From: a virus
Taxonomy: Duplodnaviria > Heunggongvirae > Uroviricota > Caudoviricetes
Length of the DNA: 11,056 nt
IMG/VR virus record: IMGVR_UViG_2663763028_000004
Span: 1 to 11,056 of that record
Strand: one strand, 5' to 3'
Every line of letters begins with the position of its first letter. Within the stretch, counting starts at the first letter, position 1. Positions 1-6,930 of the stretch are shown here, piece by piece. The position numbers and the translations under genes are program-made. Under the pieces are notes generated by a model. The model worked only from the letters and a program-made list of their open reading frames with translations, searched no databases and had not been told where the DNA came from.

Positions 1-472
1 TAGTAAACATCCGTCGAGGACTGATGAACGGTCGCCAAATCAGCAGCATGGAGCCTTTGCTGTTTCCCTTCTTCTCCAGCCCCGTCGATGGTTCGATAAA
101 ATTAATCCGTCCATCAGTGATAATGCGAACTTCGTCGACACTCTCCAGAGCCTTGCTGAACCATCCGACTGACATATCCTCTGGCACAAGCATCACTACC
201 GTCTGTCGCTGTTGTATGCACTGCTCAGCGGCTTTTTCCACCCACGGCCTGATATTGCTGTACGGTGGGTTATTCCAGATTGCCCCGTGGCTTATCCACT
301 CAGAATTTAGCGCGTCGTCGGCCTCAGTTAGCCAGTGAGCACACAGAGCATTTTTGTCGCTCGCTGCCGAATCCAGCCAGAATCCAAACTCAATATCCAG
401 TGCATCAAAAAGCCAAAGCGGCGTTTGCCAGCAGTCCTTGTCGTGTGCTGGCGTATTTGATTTGATAGTCAT
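1..472 (-). CDS. Phage-type DNA N6-adenine methyltransferase (Dam family); C-terminal end lies beyond the window start
   Basis: Not in the ORF track (no stop in window). My own reverse-strand translation from ATG (complement of 470-472) gives MTIKSNTPAHDKDCWQTPLWLFDALDIEFGFWLDS...WNNPPYSNIRPW..., with the NPPY catalytic tetrapeptide of N6-adenine MTases. Start overlaps the ninB stop (ATGA). Confidence 0.75.
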   Translation of the reverse strand, partial: MTIKSNTPAHDKDCWQTPLWLFDALDIEFGFWLDSAASDKNALCAHWLTEADDALNSEWISHGAIWNNPPYSNIRPWVEKAAEQCIQQRQTVVMLVPEDMSVGWFSKALESVDEVRIITDGRINFIEPSTGLEKKGNSKGSMLLIWRPFISPRRMFT

Positions 473-909
473 GCTGCCCGATCTCCCCATCGCGCTTTCC
501 ATTCGAGAGCCAGTCGAGCTTCGTCTGACCACTTAACGCCACGCTCTGTACCGAATGCCTGTATAAGCTCTAATAGCTCCGCAAATTCGCTTACACGCAT
601 CCTGCTGGTTGACTGGCCTATTACCACAAAGCCATTCCCGGCAAGGTTAGGAACAACATCCTGCTGCTTTAATGCTGCGGTAAACACACACTTCCAGCTT
701 TCTGCATCCAGCCAGCGACCATGCCATTCAACCTGACGAGAGACGTCACCAAGGCAAGCCCAAAGCTTTCGATTCTGGTCTAAGCTGCGGTTGCGTTCCT
801 GAATGGTTACTACGATTGGTTTGGTTGGGTCTGGAAGAATTTGCTGTACTGCGTGAATAGCGTTTTGCTGATGTGCTGGAGATCGAATTTCAAAGGTTAG
901 TTTTTTCAT
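469..909 (-). CDS. ninB: NinB (Orf-family recombination mediator)
   Basis: Track ORF 469..927; translation from the internal Met (MKKLTFEIRSPAHQQNAIHAVQQILPDPTKP...) matches lambda NinB as I recall it. Start trimmed to 909 because a GGGAGAGAGGGAAG Shine-Dalgarno sits just upstream of that ATG. Confidence 0.88.
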   Translation of the reverse strand: MKKLTFEIRSPAHQQNAIHAVQQILPDPTKPIVVTIQERNRSLDQNRKLWACLGDVSRQVEWHGRWLDAESWKCVFTAALKQQDVVPNLAGNGFVVIGQSTSRMRVSEFAELLELIQAFGTERGVKWSDEARLALEWKARWGDRAA

Positions 910-924
910 GACTTCCCTCTCTCC

Positions 925-957
925 CAAATAAAAAGGCCTGCGATTATCAGCAGGCCT
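925..957 (-). terminator. Intrinsic terminator between helicase gene and ninB (tR2-like position)
   Basis: 8-bp perfect stem AGGCCTGC/GCAGGCCT (934-941 / 950-957) with 8-nt loop; on the minus strand it is followed by TTTTTATTT (complement of 925-933). Confidence 0.6.
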
Positions 958-982
958 GTTATTAACTCAGTGATGTAGATGG

Positions 983-2359
983 TCATACGTCAGCCCCTTG
1001 TGCATATCGTCTGCCACGCGCAGCAGGTGCATTTGATGCTGTGCAAATCTGTCTGGCTTCATCCTGGTCACACGCAACAAAGTGTCCGTTGCAGAACCGC
1101 TGGTAAACCGTACCAAGCGAGCCAAAACGGTTTTTCGTCACGATGATTTCAGCAAATGGCGCGGCGCTACTGTTCTCGTCATATACCGCTTCCCGATAGA
1201 GCATGATGATTGAGTCTGCGTCCTGCTCAATGCTTCCTGAATCACGCAAATCTGCGTTTGTCGGGCGTTTATTTGGTCGCTTCTCAACATCGCGCGAAAG
1301 CTGACTCAGGGAGATAACAGACGTTTTCAGGTCTTTCGCCATCGCCTTCAGGCTTCCGGAGATGTGAGCAATTGCAAGGTCGTTGCGGTCTGCTTTCGGC
1401 TTCTCAATCAGGCCAAGATAATCCGCCATGATGAGTGACAGGTTTGGATTTTCCTGTTTGTGCCGTTCTGCGATTGAGCGTATTTCTTCGACCGATAACC
1501 GCGATGCATCGACTACCCATACATCCAAATCTGCAAGCTGACTCATGCCGTTAGCAACACGCGCCCAGCCTTCGTCATCCATCGATGCAGGATTTCGCAG
1601 CACGCTAACCGACATCCTCCCGGCGTTGGCAATGCTCCGCTCTGCAATCTGCAATGCGCTCATTTCCATTGAGAAAATCAATACTCCGCGCCGGACGTCA
1701 GAACCAGGAATAACGCGGCTTGCAACACCTTCGGCAATCTTCAGCGCCAGTTCGGTTTTCCCCATACCAGGACGAGCGGCGATAATCACCAGGTCTTCCG
1801 CGTTCATCCCTCCGGTGATAGCGTCAAGTTCTTCGATTCCGGTCTTCAGGGTATCGGACTCTTCTCCGTTCCTCAGACGCCTGTCAAGCGTGTCAGTGTA
1901 GTCAGTGATGATTTCACCTAACCGTACAGGTTTAACCTCGTCACGGGGCTTTCTGATGGCTGAGAGACGCTTTACAAGCTCATCCATCGCCTGACTCGAT
2001 GCGTCGATGGTTCCGCTCTGAATTGGTTCACGCATTTCGTCCATGATTTCCAGCACCAGACGGCGGTGATAGTTATCCGCGACCATTCCGGCATATCCCT
2101 TCAGGTTTGCGGCACTCGGGCAGTTTTTGCTGGTCATCAGGATTGACGTGAAATGCTCCTCTCCGCACGCCTCGGCAACCATCAGCGCATCGATTAGGTT
2201 TCTGTTTCTCGCCTGCTTGCGGATAACCTCGAAGGCTTTCCGGTAGAGTGGAATTGAAAACGCTTCCGGATCCAGCGTTGCCAGAACGTCGCTGGCGGTT
2301 GGTGTTAATCCACCAATCAGCAGGCCACCGATAACGCTCGCTTCGATATCCTGTCTCAT
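983..2359 (-). CDS. Replicative DNA helicase, DnaB family (phage P22 gene 12-type), replacing lambda P
   Basis: 458-aa track ORF; Walker A ARPGMGKT, Walker B-like LIMADYLGL, DnaB-like N-terminal domain. AGGGGGA RBS upstream; start overlaps the stop of the upstream O-like gene (ATGA). Confidence 0.9.
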
Positions 2360-3186
2360 GCAATCCCCCTGTCTGCAAACTTCCCTTCCCGTACTCCCGT
2401 TAACGAATCTTCCCTCAGCAGGTAATCAAAATCGGCCGTCCAGCCCGTGTCGTTGTCTCCGAAGTAAAACGGCTTGGCCTGATGCACAAACGCCCTGACA
2501 TACGCTCTGAAACCGTCCACGTTTGGCGTTTTCAGTTGCGGGATGATTTTCTTCAGGCGGCGTTTGCGTTTCTCGTTGACCGCAACAGCATGTGGAAGTC
2601 TGTCACCGACTTCGGTGTTGTAGGCGTTCAGGAAGGATTCGTAGTCGATTCGTTCTGCCTTGCGACGTTCAGGTTTAACCTGCCCATCGCCGCCCCCGTT
2701 AGGGGGTAAGGGGGTATTTGTATTTATTGTCTTTTGTATATTGTCTTTTGTGTTTGACTGATTCGGTAAATTGCTTTTTACCGATTTGGTGAAGGTTTGT
2801 TTTACCGAATTGGTAAATGTTTTACCGAATCCGTTAACTTTCGTTTTCCACTCGGAAATGTTTGTATTCATACCAACTTGACGCCCCACCTGAATGAGAA
2901 CTCCCATTCTGATAAGCTCGTTTTTGGCGGTAGAGCATTTGGTTGGTGCCATGCCAGTGAGTTCAGCGAACTGTTCGTTTCCGATCCAATCTATTTTTTT
3001 GTTGTAACCGTATGTCTTGCGCCACACAGCCATAACAATCAGTAACTGATGTAGAGTAAGTCCAGAAAGCATGGCGGCTTCTAACAGTGTGTTTGCAGTC
3101 CGAGTGTAGCCATCTTCGAGTTCTGCCACGCGATGCTCCACGACCTCCAGTTGAGGCCTGTAATCAGCTAACTTAACGACGCCCAT
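2356..3186 (-). CDS. O: Replication initiator, lambda O family (replisome organiser)
   Basis: 276-aa track ORF; N-terminal domain ([32 protein letters not shown]) resembles lambda O as I recall it. Low-complexity central linker ([15 protein letters not shown]) is encoded by the iteron array. Confidence 0.85.
2715..2838. repeat. Probable replication origin inside the O-like gene: iterons plus AT-rich tract
   Basis: Three direct copies of GTTTTACCGA(A/T)T starting near 2774, 2799 and 2819, one inverted copy (ATTCGGTAAA, 2761-2770), and an adjacent T-rich tract with tandem ATTGTCTTTTGT (2726-2750). Relative to O transcription the order is iterons then AT-rich tract, as in ori-lambda. Confidence 0.7.
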
Positions 3187-3334
3187 GTTTCACTCCTGCT
3201 TTGGCTAGTCTGTAAACACCAACAAGGCGCTCTGCGAACGCCCTGTTATTTGCTGCGGCTACCACTAATCCCTCAGGTGAATCAGGGTGTCGAATCTCTT
3301 CTTTTTCCTGGTATTTCTTACGACGTTTTGTCAT
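3173..3334 (-). CDS. Hypothetical small basic protein (53 aa) between cII and O
   Basis: Not in track (<60 aa). My translation: [59 protein letters not shown] Shine-Dalgarno 5 nt upstream; 3' end overlaps the O start. Confidence 0.4.
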   Translation of the reverse strand: MTKRRKKYQEKEEIRHPDSPEGLVVAAANNRAFAERLVGVYRLAKAGVKHGRR

Positions 3335-3344
3335 AATTACTCCT

Positions 3345-3421
3345 GTGGATTGATCCAGTAATTCCCTCAGAATTGCATATCAATTTGCTTAAAATCCTCG
3401 GTGGCGGCCGGGGATTTTTTC
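3345..3421 (+). ncRNA. oop-like antisense RNA overlapping the 3' end of cII (coordinates estimated)
   Basis: Extended -10 promoter TG-T-CATAAT (3329-3337) on the plus strand; plus-strand terminator hairpin CCTCGG/CCGGGG (3396-3413) followed by TTTTTT, inside and antisense to the cII 3' end. Same arrangement as pO/oop in lambda. Confidence 0.4.
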
Positions 3422-3663
3422 TTTGTGATTTCATCAAGCGCATACTTAAAAGCCCTGCTAATCGGACTGATGTCTGATGCCATTCCGAAAGCACACAAGA
3501 CCGAAGCAATAAATCTCCAGTCCGTTCTGCTTATCTTCGATTCATGACAGCCAATCATCTTTGCCAGACCGCGCTGTGTAAGCGTTGACAGGTTGATGAG
3601 TAAATCTGTTTCTGCGCGATCAACGTCGCGCTGTGATAGTTTGCTGTAACTTGTTTGTTCCAT
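3367..3663 (-). CDS. cII: CII-family transcriptional activator
   Basis: 98-aa track ORF in the canonical position downstream of cro and nutR; helix-turn-helix-like segment (GLAKMIGCHESKISR). Its start codon abuts a TTGC-N6-TTGT element, as in lambda. Confidence 0.8.
   Translation of the reverse strand: MEQTSYSKLSQRDVDRAETDLLINLSTLTQRGLAKMIGCHESKISRTDWRFIASVLCAFGMASDISPISRAFKYALDEITKKKSPAATEDFKQIDMQF
3394..3421 (+). terminator. Intrinsic terminator of the antisense RNA (tO-like), with bidirectional character
   Basis: 6-bp stem with one G-U pair, 6-nt loop, then a T6 run (3415-3420); A-run on the 5' side. Confidence 0.55.
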
Positions 3664-3673
3664 TTCTTACTAT
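3641..3673 (+). promoter_or_regulatory. pRE-like CII-activated promoter
   Basis: TTGC-tgtaac-TTGT-ttgttc-CAT (3641-3663) has the same spacing as lambda pRE (TTGC-N6-TTGC-N6-CAT, where CAT is the reverse of the cII ATG); candidate -10 TACTAT at 3668-3673 points toward cro/cI on the plus strand. Confidence 0.55.
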
Positions 3674-3697
3674 TTCCATGGGTAAATAATCACTAAT

Positions 3698-3715
3698 ACT
3701 CATCTTTCGATGAGT
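3698..3715 (-). terminator. tR1-position hairpin (7-bp stem, GAAA loop); terminator function uncertain
   Basis: ACTCATC-GAAA-GATGAGT on the minus strand between nutR and the cII RBS; no strong U-tract follows, so Rho-dependent or merely structural. Confidence 0.3.
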
Positions 3716-3727
3716 GCTTAATTAGTT

Positions 3728-3762
3728 ACCGCGTTGTCGGCGGTGCAGATTGATAAAGAGCG
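3728..3762 (-). promoter_or_regulatory. nutR (boxA + boxB)
   Basis: Minus-strand boxA CGCTCTTTA (complement of 3754-3762) directly after the cro stop; boxB hairpin ACCGC-CGACAAC-GCGGT (complement of 3728-3744) with a GACAA-containing loop, as in P22-type boxB. Confidence 0.65.
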
Positions 3763-3769
3763 GTGTTAC

Positions 3770-3997
3770 TTATGCAGCCAGAAGGTTCTTTTTGCTTATT
3801 TCAAGCATTTCGCTTGCTTGATATTTGCCACCAGAAATCTCTTCGATTTTTGATGCGTATTTAGTTTTCCCAAAAAACTCAGTCTTAGGGAGGAAGCCGT
3901 TTTTGAGCCACTTATAGACAGCCCTTTCGCTAACTCCACAAGCCTTCGCAACTTCAGGGATGCCGACACCTTTAATCGGCTCATCAAGATTTTGCAT
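3770..3997 (-). CDS. cro: Cro-like repressor (HTH)
   Basis: 75-aa track ORF transcribed divergently from cI across the operator region; HTH-like segment GIPEVAKACGVSERAVYKWL; AAGGA RBS 7 nt upstream. Confidence 0.8.
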   Translation of the reverse strand: MQNLDEPIKGVGIPEVAKACGVSERAVYKWLKNGFLPKTEFFGKTKYASKIEEISGGKYQASEMLEISKKNLLAA

Positions 3998-4075
3998 AGG
4001 AATATCCTTTTTCGTACTTTCAGTACGTATTATGGTTGAACTGAAAGTTTTTGCAAGTGCTTTAGTATCGTACTC
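3998..4075. promoter_or_regulatory. OR operator region with divergent pR and pRM
   Basis: pR candidate on the minus strand: -35 TTGCAA (4051-4056), -10 CATAAT (complement of 4029-4034). pRM candidate -10 TAGTAT (4063-4068) ends 8 nt before the cI ATG. Dyad elements: CGTAC-N5-GTACG (4013-4027); 9-mer ACTTTCAGT (4016-4024) with inverted copy ACTGAAAGT (4040-4048) flanking the pR -10; CGTAC again at 4069-4073. Confidence 0.65.
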
Positions 4076-4783
4076 ATGGTTCAGAATGAAAAAGTGCGCA
4101 AAGAATTCGCCCAGCGGCTAGCGCAAGCCTGTAAAGAAGCTGGTCTTGATGAACATGGTAGGGGGATGGCCATAGCCCGTGCCCTTTCTCTTTCGTCCAA
4201 AGGCGTTAGCAAATGGTTTAATGCTGAGTCTTTACCGCGTCAGGAAAAAATGAATGCGCTTGCGAAATTTCTAAACGTTGATGTTGTTTGGCTTCAGCAC
4301 GGCACTTCGTTAAATGGAGCGAATGATGAAGATACTCTTTCATTTGTTGGCAAATTAAAAAAAGGGTTAGTGCGCGTGGTTGGTGAGGCAATTCTTGGTG
4401 TTGATGGTGCCATCGAGATGACCGAAGAGCGCGATGGGTGGCTCAAAATTTATAGCGATGATCCAGATGCCTTTGGTCTTCGTGTGAAAGGAGACAGCAT
4501 GTGGCCTAGAATAAAATCAGGAGAATATGTACTCATTGAGCCTAACACCAAAGTATTCCCGGGTGATGAGGTGTTTGTCAGAACTGTTGAAGGACACAAC
4601 ATGATCAAAGTTCTTGGCTATGACAGAGACGGAGAATACCAATTTACAAGCATCAACCAGGACCACAGGCCAATAACGTTGCCTTATCATCAAGTAGCAA
4701 AGGTGGAGTATGTGGCTGGTATTCTGAAGCAATCTCGCCATCTGGATGACATCGAGGCAAGGGAGTGGCTGAAAAGTTCGTGA
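4076..4783 (+). CDS. cI: CI repressor (N-terminal HTH, C-terminal LexA-like S24 autopeptidase domain)
   Basis: 235-aa track ORF; C-terminal GDSMWP motif and a Lys about 40 residues later (S24 Ser-Lys dyad pattern); no Shine-Dalgarno before the ATG. Confidence 0.9.
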   Translation: MVQNEKVRKEFAQRLAQACKEAGLDEHGRGMAIARALSLSSKGVSKWFNAESLPRQEKMNALAKFLNVDVVWLQHGTSLNGANDEDTLSFVGKLKKGLVRVVGEAILGVDGAIEMTEERDGWLKIYSDDPDAFGLRVKGDSMWPRIKSGEYVLIEPNTKVFPGDEVFVRTVEGHNMIKVLGYDRDGEYQFTSINQDHRPITLPYHQVAKVEYVAGILKQSRHLDDIEAREWLKSS

Positions 4784-4843
4784 CTTCATCGTCACATAGC
4801 TGGTAACCAGTGGCCTGAAGAGACGTTTGGGTAAAGAGGATAG

Positions 4844-5097
4844 ATGGAGTTTAATGGCCATGAGTATCAAGCGGTCAAAAAGAAGTTCATCTATTCATTG
4901 AAAGCATAAGGCCATCTGAGTATATCCGTAATGATCTGGATATTGTCTATAACATCAATGACCGGACGATAGATATCGGTGAGCAGCGTCCTGTATGGCA
5001 GGGTGAGGCAGGTGAAAAAACGTCCTGCCATCAACAAGAATCAAGTGCATCCGCTCTCTGGACAGATGGAAAATTTATTGGATGCAAAAAGATATGA
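4844..5097 (+). pseudogene. Frameshift-split reading frame (about 84 codons if joined) downstream of cI
   Basis: ATG at 4844 with AAGAGGA RBS opens a 21-codon ORF (MEFNGHEYQAVKKKFIYSLKA). The -1 frame is open for 78 codons (4864-5097) with no ATG/GTG/TTG in frame. The two overlap at an A5 run (4877-4881) in the context C-AAA-AAG. Confidence 0.3.
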
Positions 5098-5207
5098 AAT
5101 AACACCTGTATAGCACGGAGCTTTCTCTGACCGATGCACTTGAAGTTGTTAGGGCTGACCCAGCCTGCTGTTTCTTTAGGTAAGAGAAAAGAGATTTAGG
5201 AGATGAA

Positions 5208-5235
5208 AGGTCGCAGAGGTGCGGCCTTTTTTATT
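5208..5235 (+). terminator. Intrinsic terminator downstream of the cI transcription unit
   Basis: 8-bp stem AGGTCGCA/TGCGGCCT (one G-U pair) with GAGG loop, followed by T-rich tract (5228-5235). Confidence 0.6.
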
Positions 5236-5335
5236 GAGAGTGGATCTTGAACGGAAATTCTCAAGACTTGAGTCTTACATGCAAATCAATTCCTGGATAA
5301 ACTCGATCTGAGTCAATAACTTAGAGAGAGAGCAA

Positions 5336-5857
5336 ATGGCAAAGTCAAACGTTAGCGTGCAGGCATTCAAGGACTTCCTTGAAGAGCTTATGTCGCTGAA
5401 CATAATGAAGGAGGCCACCGCTCGAAATTTAAAAAACTCATCCGCTCGCCTCTTAACGGTAGTCCAAGAAGAGGAAATGGGTGATGTTACTCAGCTTGAT
5501 GTGAATGAGCTTGCCGAGCGATACATCAACGCAACTGAGCCGAAGCCTAGCGACAGCAGCATTACTGCATATAAAAGCCGCATGGAAAGTGCAATCAAAA
5601 AGTTTGTAGCTTTCCAGTCTGGTGAAGAAATCCCATACACTCCGATTGACAAAGAATCCAGTGAGGAAAAAGATTTGACTGGCGAACCAACAAAAGTCGA
5701 AGGCAAGGCTAATGCACTTCATACCTATGATCTTCCAGTAGTTCTTCGACCTGAATCAGGGGTTACAGTAACGATTAAAGGCATTCCTAACGATATCACA
5801 AACGAAGAAGCCGAACGCATCTCTTCAATTCTGAAGGTTTACGTTCGGCCTCAATAA
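5336..5857 (+). CDS. Hypothetical acidic protein (173 aa), moron in the cI-pL interval; family not recognised
   Basis: Track ORF with purine-rich RBS (AGAGAGAGAGCAA-ATG). Same strand as cI, but separated from it by a terminator and followed by one. No hydrophobic segment and no motif I can assign. Confidence 0.7.
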   Translation: MAKSNVSVQAFKDFLEELMSLNIMKEATARNLKNSSARLLTVVQEEEMGDVTQLDVNELAERYINATEPKPSDSSITAYKSRMESAIKKFVAFQSGEEIPYTPIDKESSEEKDLTGEPTKVEGKANALHTYDLPVVLRPESGVTVTIKGIPNDITNEEAERISSILKVYVRPQ

Positions 5858-6030
5858 TGCAAAAGCATTCAGCACAATGTCCAACTCCCCAGTCCGACAT
5901 TGATGCTGTTTAACCAGAGCCTCCAAAAGGAGCCCTTGTTAAGGTACACAATATTTGCGATGTAACCTTAGCGCGTCTGGTACATTTTTTCAAGCGGTTG
6001 TAGGGCTGCCGCCAATATGAGAAAACACAG

Positions 6031-6153
6031 ATGTCTACATACAATTTGAATGACCAATTCGATCGAGAAGTTCATGTGAATGCCTATGAACGGATAAGGT
6101 ATGGAAATCTTGAACATGTGTGTGAGCATTATCGCTCAAGGCCACACCGCTAA
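6031..6153 (+). CDS. Hypothetical 40-aa ORF ending 8 nt before a terminator
   Basis: My translation: MSTYNLNDQFDREVHVNAYERIRYGNLEHVCEHYRSRPHR. Weak Shine-Dalgarno (GAGAAAA); supported mainly by position. Confidence 0.25.
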   Translation: MSTYNLNDQFDREVHVNAYERIRYGNLEHVCEHYRSRPHR

Positions 6154-6160
6154 TCATCAA

Positions 6161-6186
6161 CCCGGCCTCAGCGCCGGGTTTTCTTT
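6161..6186 (+). terminator. Intrinsic terminator closing the moron unit upstream of pL
   Basis: Perfect 6-bp stem CCCGGC/GCCGGG with 6-nt loop, followed by TTTTCTTT. Confidence 0.6.
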
Positions 6187-6352
6187 GCCTCACGATCGCC
6201 CCCCATATTTAATAGCCGAAAATGTGGTAAACCGCGAACCAACTCACCAGCAATACCCCCTTCAACTACAGACCAATCTGCAGCATTTACAAAAATAAAT
6301 TTCCTTATATATCAAAATCATATCTCGAAGCATTAATAAACCACAAAATTTT

Positions 6353-6400
6353 CGTACCAATAGTTCTTGATAATATCGAACTATTGGTTCATTATTGTCA
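6353..6400 (+). promoter_or_regulatory. pL/OL candidate region
   Basis: Perfect 11-bp-arm inverted repeat ACCAATAGTTC-N11-GAACTATTGGT (6356-6388); candidate -35 TTGATA (6367-6372) and -10 CATTAT (6390-6395) with 17-bp spacing; CGTAC motif (6353-6357) shared with OR; sits about 40 nt upstream of nutL. Confidence 0.4.
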
Positions 6401-6441
6401 CGTCAGCAGGAAGCTGGAAGCCAAACGGAACAGATTGGCAG

Positions 6442-6475: not shown

Positions 6476-6594
6476 AAACAGATACCAAACGAGATGGGTT
6501 TGTCGGTGATGTGAATTGCAGCTGCAACGACAGCAACCAGAAGATCAGCACCTGGCGCATCACCACCAAAGCCATTTCACATGAGGAAAACATC

Positions 6595-6930
6595 ATGACG
6601 GTAATCGTGTACGGGAAATCAACATTTGCAGGAAATGCCAAAACTCGCCGTCATGAGCGGCGCAGAAAGATGGCTATCGAGCGTGATGCCATCTGCAACA
6701 TCATTGATTCTATCTTCGGCACAGACAGTGAGGAACCTGTTCAGGAGGCCCCAAGAAAGCGTTTAAGCCTTTCTGAAAAAGCAATATCACTCGGAAGCCT
6801 TCGCTGCAAGAAGGCAGAAGAAGTCGAGCGTAAACAGAACCGTATTTACTACCGCAAGCCACGCAGTGAAATGGGTGTGACTTGTGTTGGTCGCCAGAAA
6901 ATGAAATTAGGCAGCAAACCACTTATTTGA
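6595..6930 (+). CDS. N: Antitermination protein N (P22 gene 24-like)
   Basis: Start chosen at the internal Met of track ORF 6511..6930 (GAGGAAAA RBS). N-terminus MTVIVYGKSTFAGNAKTRRHERRRKMAIERD contains the arginine-rich boxB-binding motif and is near-identical to the P22 N N-terminus as I recall it. Confidence 0.88.
   Translation: MTVIVYGKSTFAGNAKTRRHERRRKMAIERDAICNIIDSIFGTDSEEPVQEAPRKRLSLSEKAISLGSLRCKKAEEVERKQNRIYYRKPRSEMGVTCVGRQKMKLGSKPLI

Follow-up and report, generated by a model that had tools for sequence, protein, structure and literature searches.

The immunity region and its surroundings

The window (the whole stretch of 11,056 nucleotides that was analysed) contains divergently oriented cro and cI genes, with a 78-bp intergenic gap (3998-4075) between the cro ATG (3997-3995, minus strand) and the cI ATG (4076-4078, plus strand). 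The right operator region (OR) with the promoters pR and pRM lies between them and a left operator region (OL) with pL lies beyond cI (Table 1). On the minus strand, cro is followed by cII (3663..3367) and, further down, by genes for an O-like initiator and a DnaB-like helicase, while a homolog of N is located at 6511-6930 on the plus strand. The neighbourhood is that of a typical lambdoid early region.

Table 1. Genes, operators, promoters and transcription starts of the immunity region (window coordinates).
Feature	Position	Strand	Details	Evidence
cro	3770..3997	−	75 aa	ORF list, HTH Pfam matches, 933W annotation
OR1	4013-4027		CGTACTTTCAGTACG; covers pR start	933W annotation, perfect core match
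pR transcription start	4021	−	G	Cappable-seq 1346320(+), 8/8 conditions (EDL933), mapped
pR promoter	4029..4056	−	−35 TTGCAA 4056..4051, 16-nt spacer, −10 CATAAT 4034..4029	Promoter scan, 933W annotation
OR2	4037-4051		TGAACTGAAAGTTTT; in pR spacer	933W annotation, one-mismatch core match
pRM promoter	4041..4068	+	Weak −35-like CTGAAA 4041-4046, 16-nt spacer, −10 TAGTAT 4063-4068	933W (as pM) and phi24B annotation
OR3	4069-4083		CGTACTCATGGTTCA; centred on A of cI ATG (pRM +1)	933W annotation, perfect core match
pRM transcription start	4076	+	A of cI AUG	Cappable-seq 1346265(−), mapped
cI repressor	4076..4783	+	235 aa	HTH and S24 peptidase domain
OL operator, promoter-distal (probably OL2)	6353-6367		CGTACCAATAGTTCT	Perfect core match, same 15-mer in 933W
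pL promoter	6367..6395	+	−35 TTGATA, 17-nt spacer, −10 CATTAT	Promoter scan
OL operator, promoter-proximal (probably OL1)	6377-6391		CGAACTATTGGTTCA; in pL spacer	Perfect core match, same 15-mer in 933W

Comparison of positions 3950-4130 with phage 933W (NC_000924) showed 100% nucleotide identity over the 181 bp. Matches to this segment were found in 112 phage records, approximately 90 of them at an identity of at least 99%, and the same 181 bp occur in 427 of 5426 complete E. coli genomes. The OR segment is likewise identical in phi24B, Min27, Stx2-86 and dozens of Stx2a and Stx1a phages. The identity to 933W extends to the whole of CI (235/235 residues) and Cro (75/75 residues) and to all five operators, three in OR and two in OL. 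In the GenBank records of 933W and phi24B, oR1, oR2, oR3, pR and pM are annotated at exactly the positions given here, the 933W annotation having been converted to window coordinates with a locus offset of +449.

Between the window and 933W, as well as phi24B, Min27 and Stx2-86, it is only the flanks that differ, with the OR nucleotides, CI, Cro, the OL operators and the operator spacing being the same. When positions 1-3300 and 5230-6300 were compared with the 933W locus (L001), the shared sequence was found to be limited to the cII-cro-OR-cI block (3327-5227, 91% identical) and a stretch around OL (6161-6414, 76%). The lambda-type O/P genes of 933W contrast with the initiator and helicase genes present here, and nutR also differs. 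The stk/resolvase block that lies between cI and OL in 933W is replaced by other genes, among them one for a 173-aa protein of unknown function (phrog_2602). In 933W, cI is followed by a DUF3024 gene; its counterpart here, at approximately 4840-5230, aligns with two single-base gaps, has no long ORF and is probably a frameshifted pseudogene.

Transcription starts and the 5′ end of the cI mRNA

The triphosphorylated 5′ ends of E. coli EDL933 have been mapped by Cappable-seq under eight conditions (Zehentner et al., 2023; PMC10469882). For gene 6730 of this strain (“phage repressor protein C,” 1345558..1346265, minus strand), Table S5 of that study lists a single gene-specific start, 1346265(−), which was detected in all eight conditions with read scores of about 57-252. 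Reading the strand of NZ_CP008957 1330000-1379999 against the window placed this nucleotide on the A of the cI ATG (window 4076), within sequence identical to that of the window. It should be noted that these starts were measured in the 933W prophage of EDL933 and not in the window's own host. The 933W pL start, 1343173(−), was also detected in eight of eight conditions and corresponds to position 6719 of the 933W locus; from an alignment of the two OL regions, the pL start of the window would lie at about 6402-6403. For pR, pRM and pL alike, the start lies 8 nt past the final base of the −10 hexamer.

The initial annotation had proposed a leaderless cI mRNA, based on a −10-like TAGTAT ending 8 nt upstream of the ATG and on the lack of a Shine-Dalgarno (SD) sequence. 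These observations hold. Seven nucleotides (CGTACTC) separate the TAGTAT hexamer from the ATG, and no SD was found in the 25 nt upstream of the cI ATG when these were paired with the 3′ tail of 16S rRNA. The best duplex had an energy of only −1.6 kcal/mol, weaker than the median of random 25-mers from the window (−2.9 kcal/mol), about 75% of which do at least as well. Seven of ten neighbouring ORF starts gave values of −5 to −10 kcal/mol (cro at −5.4, the six others at −5.3 to −9.9), with the remaining three at −2.9 to −3.8. The proposal itself is borne out by the measured start on the A of the ATG, together with the lack of an SD and a promoter spacing that is retained in relatives.

Since pRM starts on the A of the AUG, the lysogenic cI mRNA has neither a 5′ UTR nor an SD, and translation should begin at the 5′-terminal AUG. 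Ribosomes would load directly onto this codon, by analogy with lambda cI and with PaaR2 of the cryptic prophage CP-933P (PMC8630535). In lambda, the pRM transcript also starts at the A of the cI AUG without an SD, from a similarly weak −10 region (TAGATT in lambda, TAGTAT here). The PaaR2/YdaS system offers a comparable case, being a CI-like regulator of an E. coli O157 prophage for which 5′ RACE placed a pRM-like start at the start codon. Leaderless translation of PaaR2 was confirmed by N-terminal sequencing. It differs in that the regulator is unrelated and smaller, has other operators and controls a toxin-antitoxin operon (PMC8630535). The first 60 nt of the cI mRNA were found to be no more structured than shuffled controls (z-score +1.2).

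To place these features in a wider context, nine cI homologs with 45-98% protein identity were compared, from E. albertii, Pectobacterium, Photorhabdus (two), Cedecea, Dryocola, Serratia, Salmonella phage SI8 and a Salmonella enterica chromosome. A TAnnAT hexamer (TAGTAT, TAATAT, TATTAT or TACTAT) was present exactly 7 nt before the ATG in eight of them, with positions 1, 2, 5, and 6 (T, A, A, T) conserved and positions 3-4 variable, a pattern that is as would be expected for a working −10 element. In the ninth, from the Salmonella enterica prophage (55% identity), the hexamer reads TATAGT and its distance to the ATG is 8 nt. No SD preceded cI in any of the nine homologs. The start codon was ATG in the window and all nine, never GTG or TTG.

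The assignment of this start codon is consistent with a number of protein features. The N-terminus MVQ(N/T)EK is conserved in relatives with synonymous changes, the HTH Pfam match of CI begins at residue 10 and the numbering of the published CI mutants S41/K46 agrees with a start at 4076 (PMC3317979). An internal start at Met31 (ATG 4166, preceded by AGGGGG) was rejected, as the G-run lies at a spacing of 0-3 nt and helix 1 of the HTH would be deleted. Furthermore, the protein sequence of codons 1-30 is conserved in relatives and published residue numbering counts from 4076.

It is therefore considered very probable that the region represents a 933W-type OR within a mosaic, Stx-phage-like prophage, with a pRM start that coincides with the cI AUG and a leaderless cI mRNA. 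The literature holds an explicit statement to the contrary. Chakraborty et al. (2018; PMC5977221), citing Tyler 2004, described the 933W and 434 repressor mRNAs as possessing an SD and those of lambda and BAA2326 as lacking one, which would imply a pRM transcript with a 5′ leader and conventional translation of cI. The record of vB_EcoS_P27 also carries a “ribosome_binding_site” feature 9-15 nt before the ATG. However, the same record predicts “no RBS found” for CI, the sequence holds no SD-like match, and the Cappable-seq data contain one cI start only, in every condition. Any start further upstream would moreover place OR2 still closer to, or inside, the core promoter, and the distance from −10 to ATG is 7 nt throughout the nine diverged relatives, save for one in which it is 8 nt. 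A leader with an SD is thus highly unlikely, and from the sequence and the measured start the sentence on the 933W SD is judged to be mistaken. The phi24B record predicts a pRM start 1 nt before the ATG. Searching the literature on 933W for the terms leaderless and primer extension yielded no explicit pRM start, the primary papers of 2004 and 2011 lying outside the coverage of this search. It should also be noted that the Cappable-seq study makes no comment on cI and that its Table S5 conflicts with the SD statement of PMC5977221.

The cro transcript has a conventional 24-nt leader with an AAGGA SD (SD energy −5.4 kcal/mol). Aside from these promoters, a pRE-like element was detected at 3641-3673 (plus strand) inside the 5′ end of cII. 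An exact CII box (TTGC-N6-TTGC) was not found; this one-mismatch candidate has TTGC-N6-TTGT, then 13 nt and TACTAT, a spacing equal to that of lambda pRE. A transcript from this candidate pRE would have approximately 400 nt of leader ahead of the cI AUG, again without an SD. In EDL933, an antisense Cappable-seq start, NZ_CP008957 1347028(−), was present in two conditions just past the 3′ end of cII, the place at which lambda has its oop RNA promoter. A plus-strand −10 sequence, TATTAT (4028-4033), was rejected as a promoter, having no usable −35 and no reported start, and being the complement of the pR −10 region.

Operators of OR and OL

The specificity of the 933W repressor has been described in print through operator footprints, a SELEX consensus, dissociation constants and mutational analysis (PMC3317979, PMC5977221), the biochemistry of its operators coming from the Koudelka and Friedman laboratories. 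The five natural operators, the only ones given in the literature, are 15 bp in length and rotationally symmetric about the central base pair with positions 2-5 conserved (PMC3317979). Their half-site is xG(A/T)AC(T/C)x and the sites are partly palindromic. With 0.36 perfect matches expected in the 11-kb window, a search for the core GWAC-N5-GTWC returned four, a number that none of 200 shuffled sequences reached. All four fall within OR or OL, being OR1, OR3 and the two OL sites. The centre-to-centre spacing, 24 bp for OR1-OR2, 32 bp for OR2-OR3 and 24 bp in OL, is the same in 933W.

From the sequence of OR, the initial annotation had singled out a CGTAC-N5-GTACG palindrome and a 9-mer present in both orientations on either side of the pR −10. 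Both were recovered. The palindrome, at 4013-4027, is OR1 of 933W. The 9-mer ACTTTCAGT is located at 4016-4024 and its exact reverse complement ACTGAAAGT at 4040-4048, flanking the −10 at 4034..4029, and it represents the core that OR1 and OR2 share (AC-T-N3-A-GT) with the central triplet inverted. What had been overlooked is that the second copy thereby forms the core of OR2, and that OR3 straddles the cI ATG, so that OR reaches 5 nt past the point at which the initial annotation had ended it. The accompanying view of an unusual operator grammar, rather than three obvious 17-bp palindromes, stands in so far as the 15-bp sites differ from those of lambda, a difference that had already been documented, but three partial palindromes do exist.

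The right half-site of OR3 coincides with cI codons 1-3 (ATG GTT CAG, window 4076-4083). In all nine homologs, an OR3 with the core GWAC-N5-GTWC is centred on the A of the ATG. All relatives retain ATGGTWCA, and the Met-Val-Gln N-terminus is therefore constrained both as protein and as operator.

As regards binding, OR1 is the tightest of the 933W operators and CI binds without cooperativity (PMC3317979). In OR2, one half-site is described as lacking the G at position 2 and the site as containing a 4-bp A-tract (PMC3317979), which the OR2 sequence found here fits. On intact 933W OR, the relative dissociation constants of OR1, OR2, and OR3 are 1 : 13.6 : 26.4 (PMC5977221, Table 1). For the CI binding, the order of affinity (OR1 above OR2, OR2 at least equal to OR3), the non-cooperativity, and the activation and subsequent repression of pRM, the account given here relies on this literature on the identical sequence.

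The OL region had been guessed to lie at 6340-6400, and both OL sites (6353-6391) were indeed found inside this interval; their probable names in Table 1 follow the lambda convention. The two 15-mers are identical to those of 933W, though the wider region (6161-6414) is only 76% identical. No third site was detected near 6353-6391 in the core search, even with one mismatch allowed, and 933W is likewise reported to lack OL3 (PMC5977221). A sixth perfect core match, CGTACTAGATGTACT, is present outside the window at 6041-6055 of the 933W locus (L001), inside stk between cI and OL. This match may be due to chance, with approximately 0.2 expected in 7 kb.

The OR1 palindrome could also be read as an RNA element. 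A terminator scan flagged CGTACTTTCAGTACG together with the T-rich run TATTATGGTT, which on the plus strand would form a hairpin or intrinsic terminator that might, for example, attenuate pRE read-through into cI, so that the repeats would not be protein-binding sites only. However, the stem has just six pairs, three of them G-C, the tail is interrupted and one such match is not significantly above shuffle expectation (0.3 ± 0.6). OR1 also lies upstream of the pRM start and is missing from the lysogenic transcript. Such a pattern arises from any palindromic operator, and a characterized CI site has this very sequence; this reading is extremely improbable and the match was judged to be a by-product of the palindrome.

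The suggestion that the repressor specificity could not be assigned to a described immunity group, and would represent a new one with non-canonical operators, has in its favour that the operators are 15 bp and not 17 bp and that only OR1 is an obvious palindrome, but it can be given practically no credence in view of the full identity of the repressor, Cro and operators to 933W, the wide occurrence of this OR among phages and E. coli genomes and the prior dissection of the specificity (PMC3317979). The region therefore belongs to the 933W immunity group. As a repressor/operator switch it is already known and well studied, and the window reveals nothing new in this respect.

Promoter geometry and control of pRM

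Like lambda OR, the region comprises divergent pR and pRM with three CI operators, of which OR3 serves in auto-repression. The dimensions differ, however. Operators are 17 bp in lambda and 15 bp here, and the starts of pR and pRM are approximately 83 bp apart in lambda and 55 bp here. Relative to pRM +1, the centres of OR3, OR2, and OR1 lie at −19, −42, and −66 in the lambda record; with +1 at 4076 they lie here at +1, −32, and −56. OR2 is thus one helical turn closer to the start than lambda OR2 (−42). The lambda-type architecture, in which OR2 abuts the pRM −35 and OR3 covers the −10/−35, was not found here. Further differences are the reported lack of OR1-OR2 cooperativity in 933W and the presence of only two OL sites (PMC3317979, PMC5977221), where the lambda type has three that allow OL3-OR3 looping. 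The −35 of each promoter lies inside the spacer of the other, which makes the two RNA polymerase sites overlap completely.

In the lytic state, pR would fire from 4021 to give a conventional SD-bearing cro-cII message. In the lysogen, CI would fill OR1 and then OR2 and silence pR, which follows from the location of OR1 over the pR start and of OR2 in the pR spacer. Firing of pRM from 4076 would then give the mRNA beginning with AUG that supplies the repressor in the lysogen. At slightly higher concentrations, CI on OR3, being centred on +1, would block RNA polymerase and bring about auto-repression of pRM. The two OL operators (6353-6391) would control pL. OR3 auto-repression has been proposed by the Koudelka laboratory as a cause of the low repressor levels and “hair-trigger” induction of 933W lysogens (PMC5977221).

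OR2 is the activating site for pRM according to the literature on 933W, and −32 is an unusual position for such a site. It spans −39..−25 of pRM, with the contacted blocks GAAC at −38..−35 and GTTT at −29..−26, and so covers the −35 region. With OR2 lying across the −35, a lambda-style contact from a site adjoining the −35 appears geometrically impossible. A positional likeness exists to CII at lambda pRE, where TTGC-N6-TTGC spans the −35 with tetrads at −39..−36 and −29..−26, taking the pRE start to be at 38343, against the OR2 half-site cores at −38..−35 and −29..−26. The protein is a different one and the OR2 repeat is inverted, unlike the direct repeat of CII; the likeness is one of position and does not address the face of the DNA. 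It is conceivable, if rather doubtful, that CI stimulates pRM in a manner other than that of lambda, either, like CII, by binding the −35 on the face opposite sigma region 4 or by clearing RNA polymerase from the overlapping pR. If true, this would be a mechanistically distinct form of “positive control” by CI, which the primary papers of 2004 and 2011 may already address. The operator-promoter geometry defined by the measured starts is in any case unlike that of lambda and worth experiment.

The start sites that make the 933W cI mRNA leaderless have stood unremarked in a supplementary table, and they contradict a statement that has been used to reason on repressor levels per transcript. The 933W switch sets the ease with which Stx2 prophages are induced and, through this, the amount of Shiga toxin made, with this exact OR present in about 8% of complete E. 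coli genomes.
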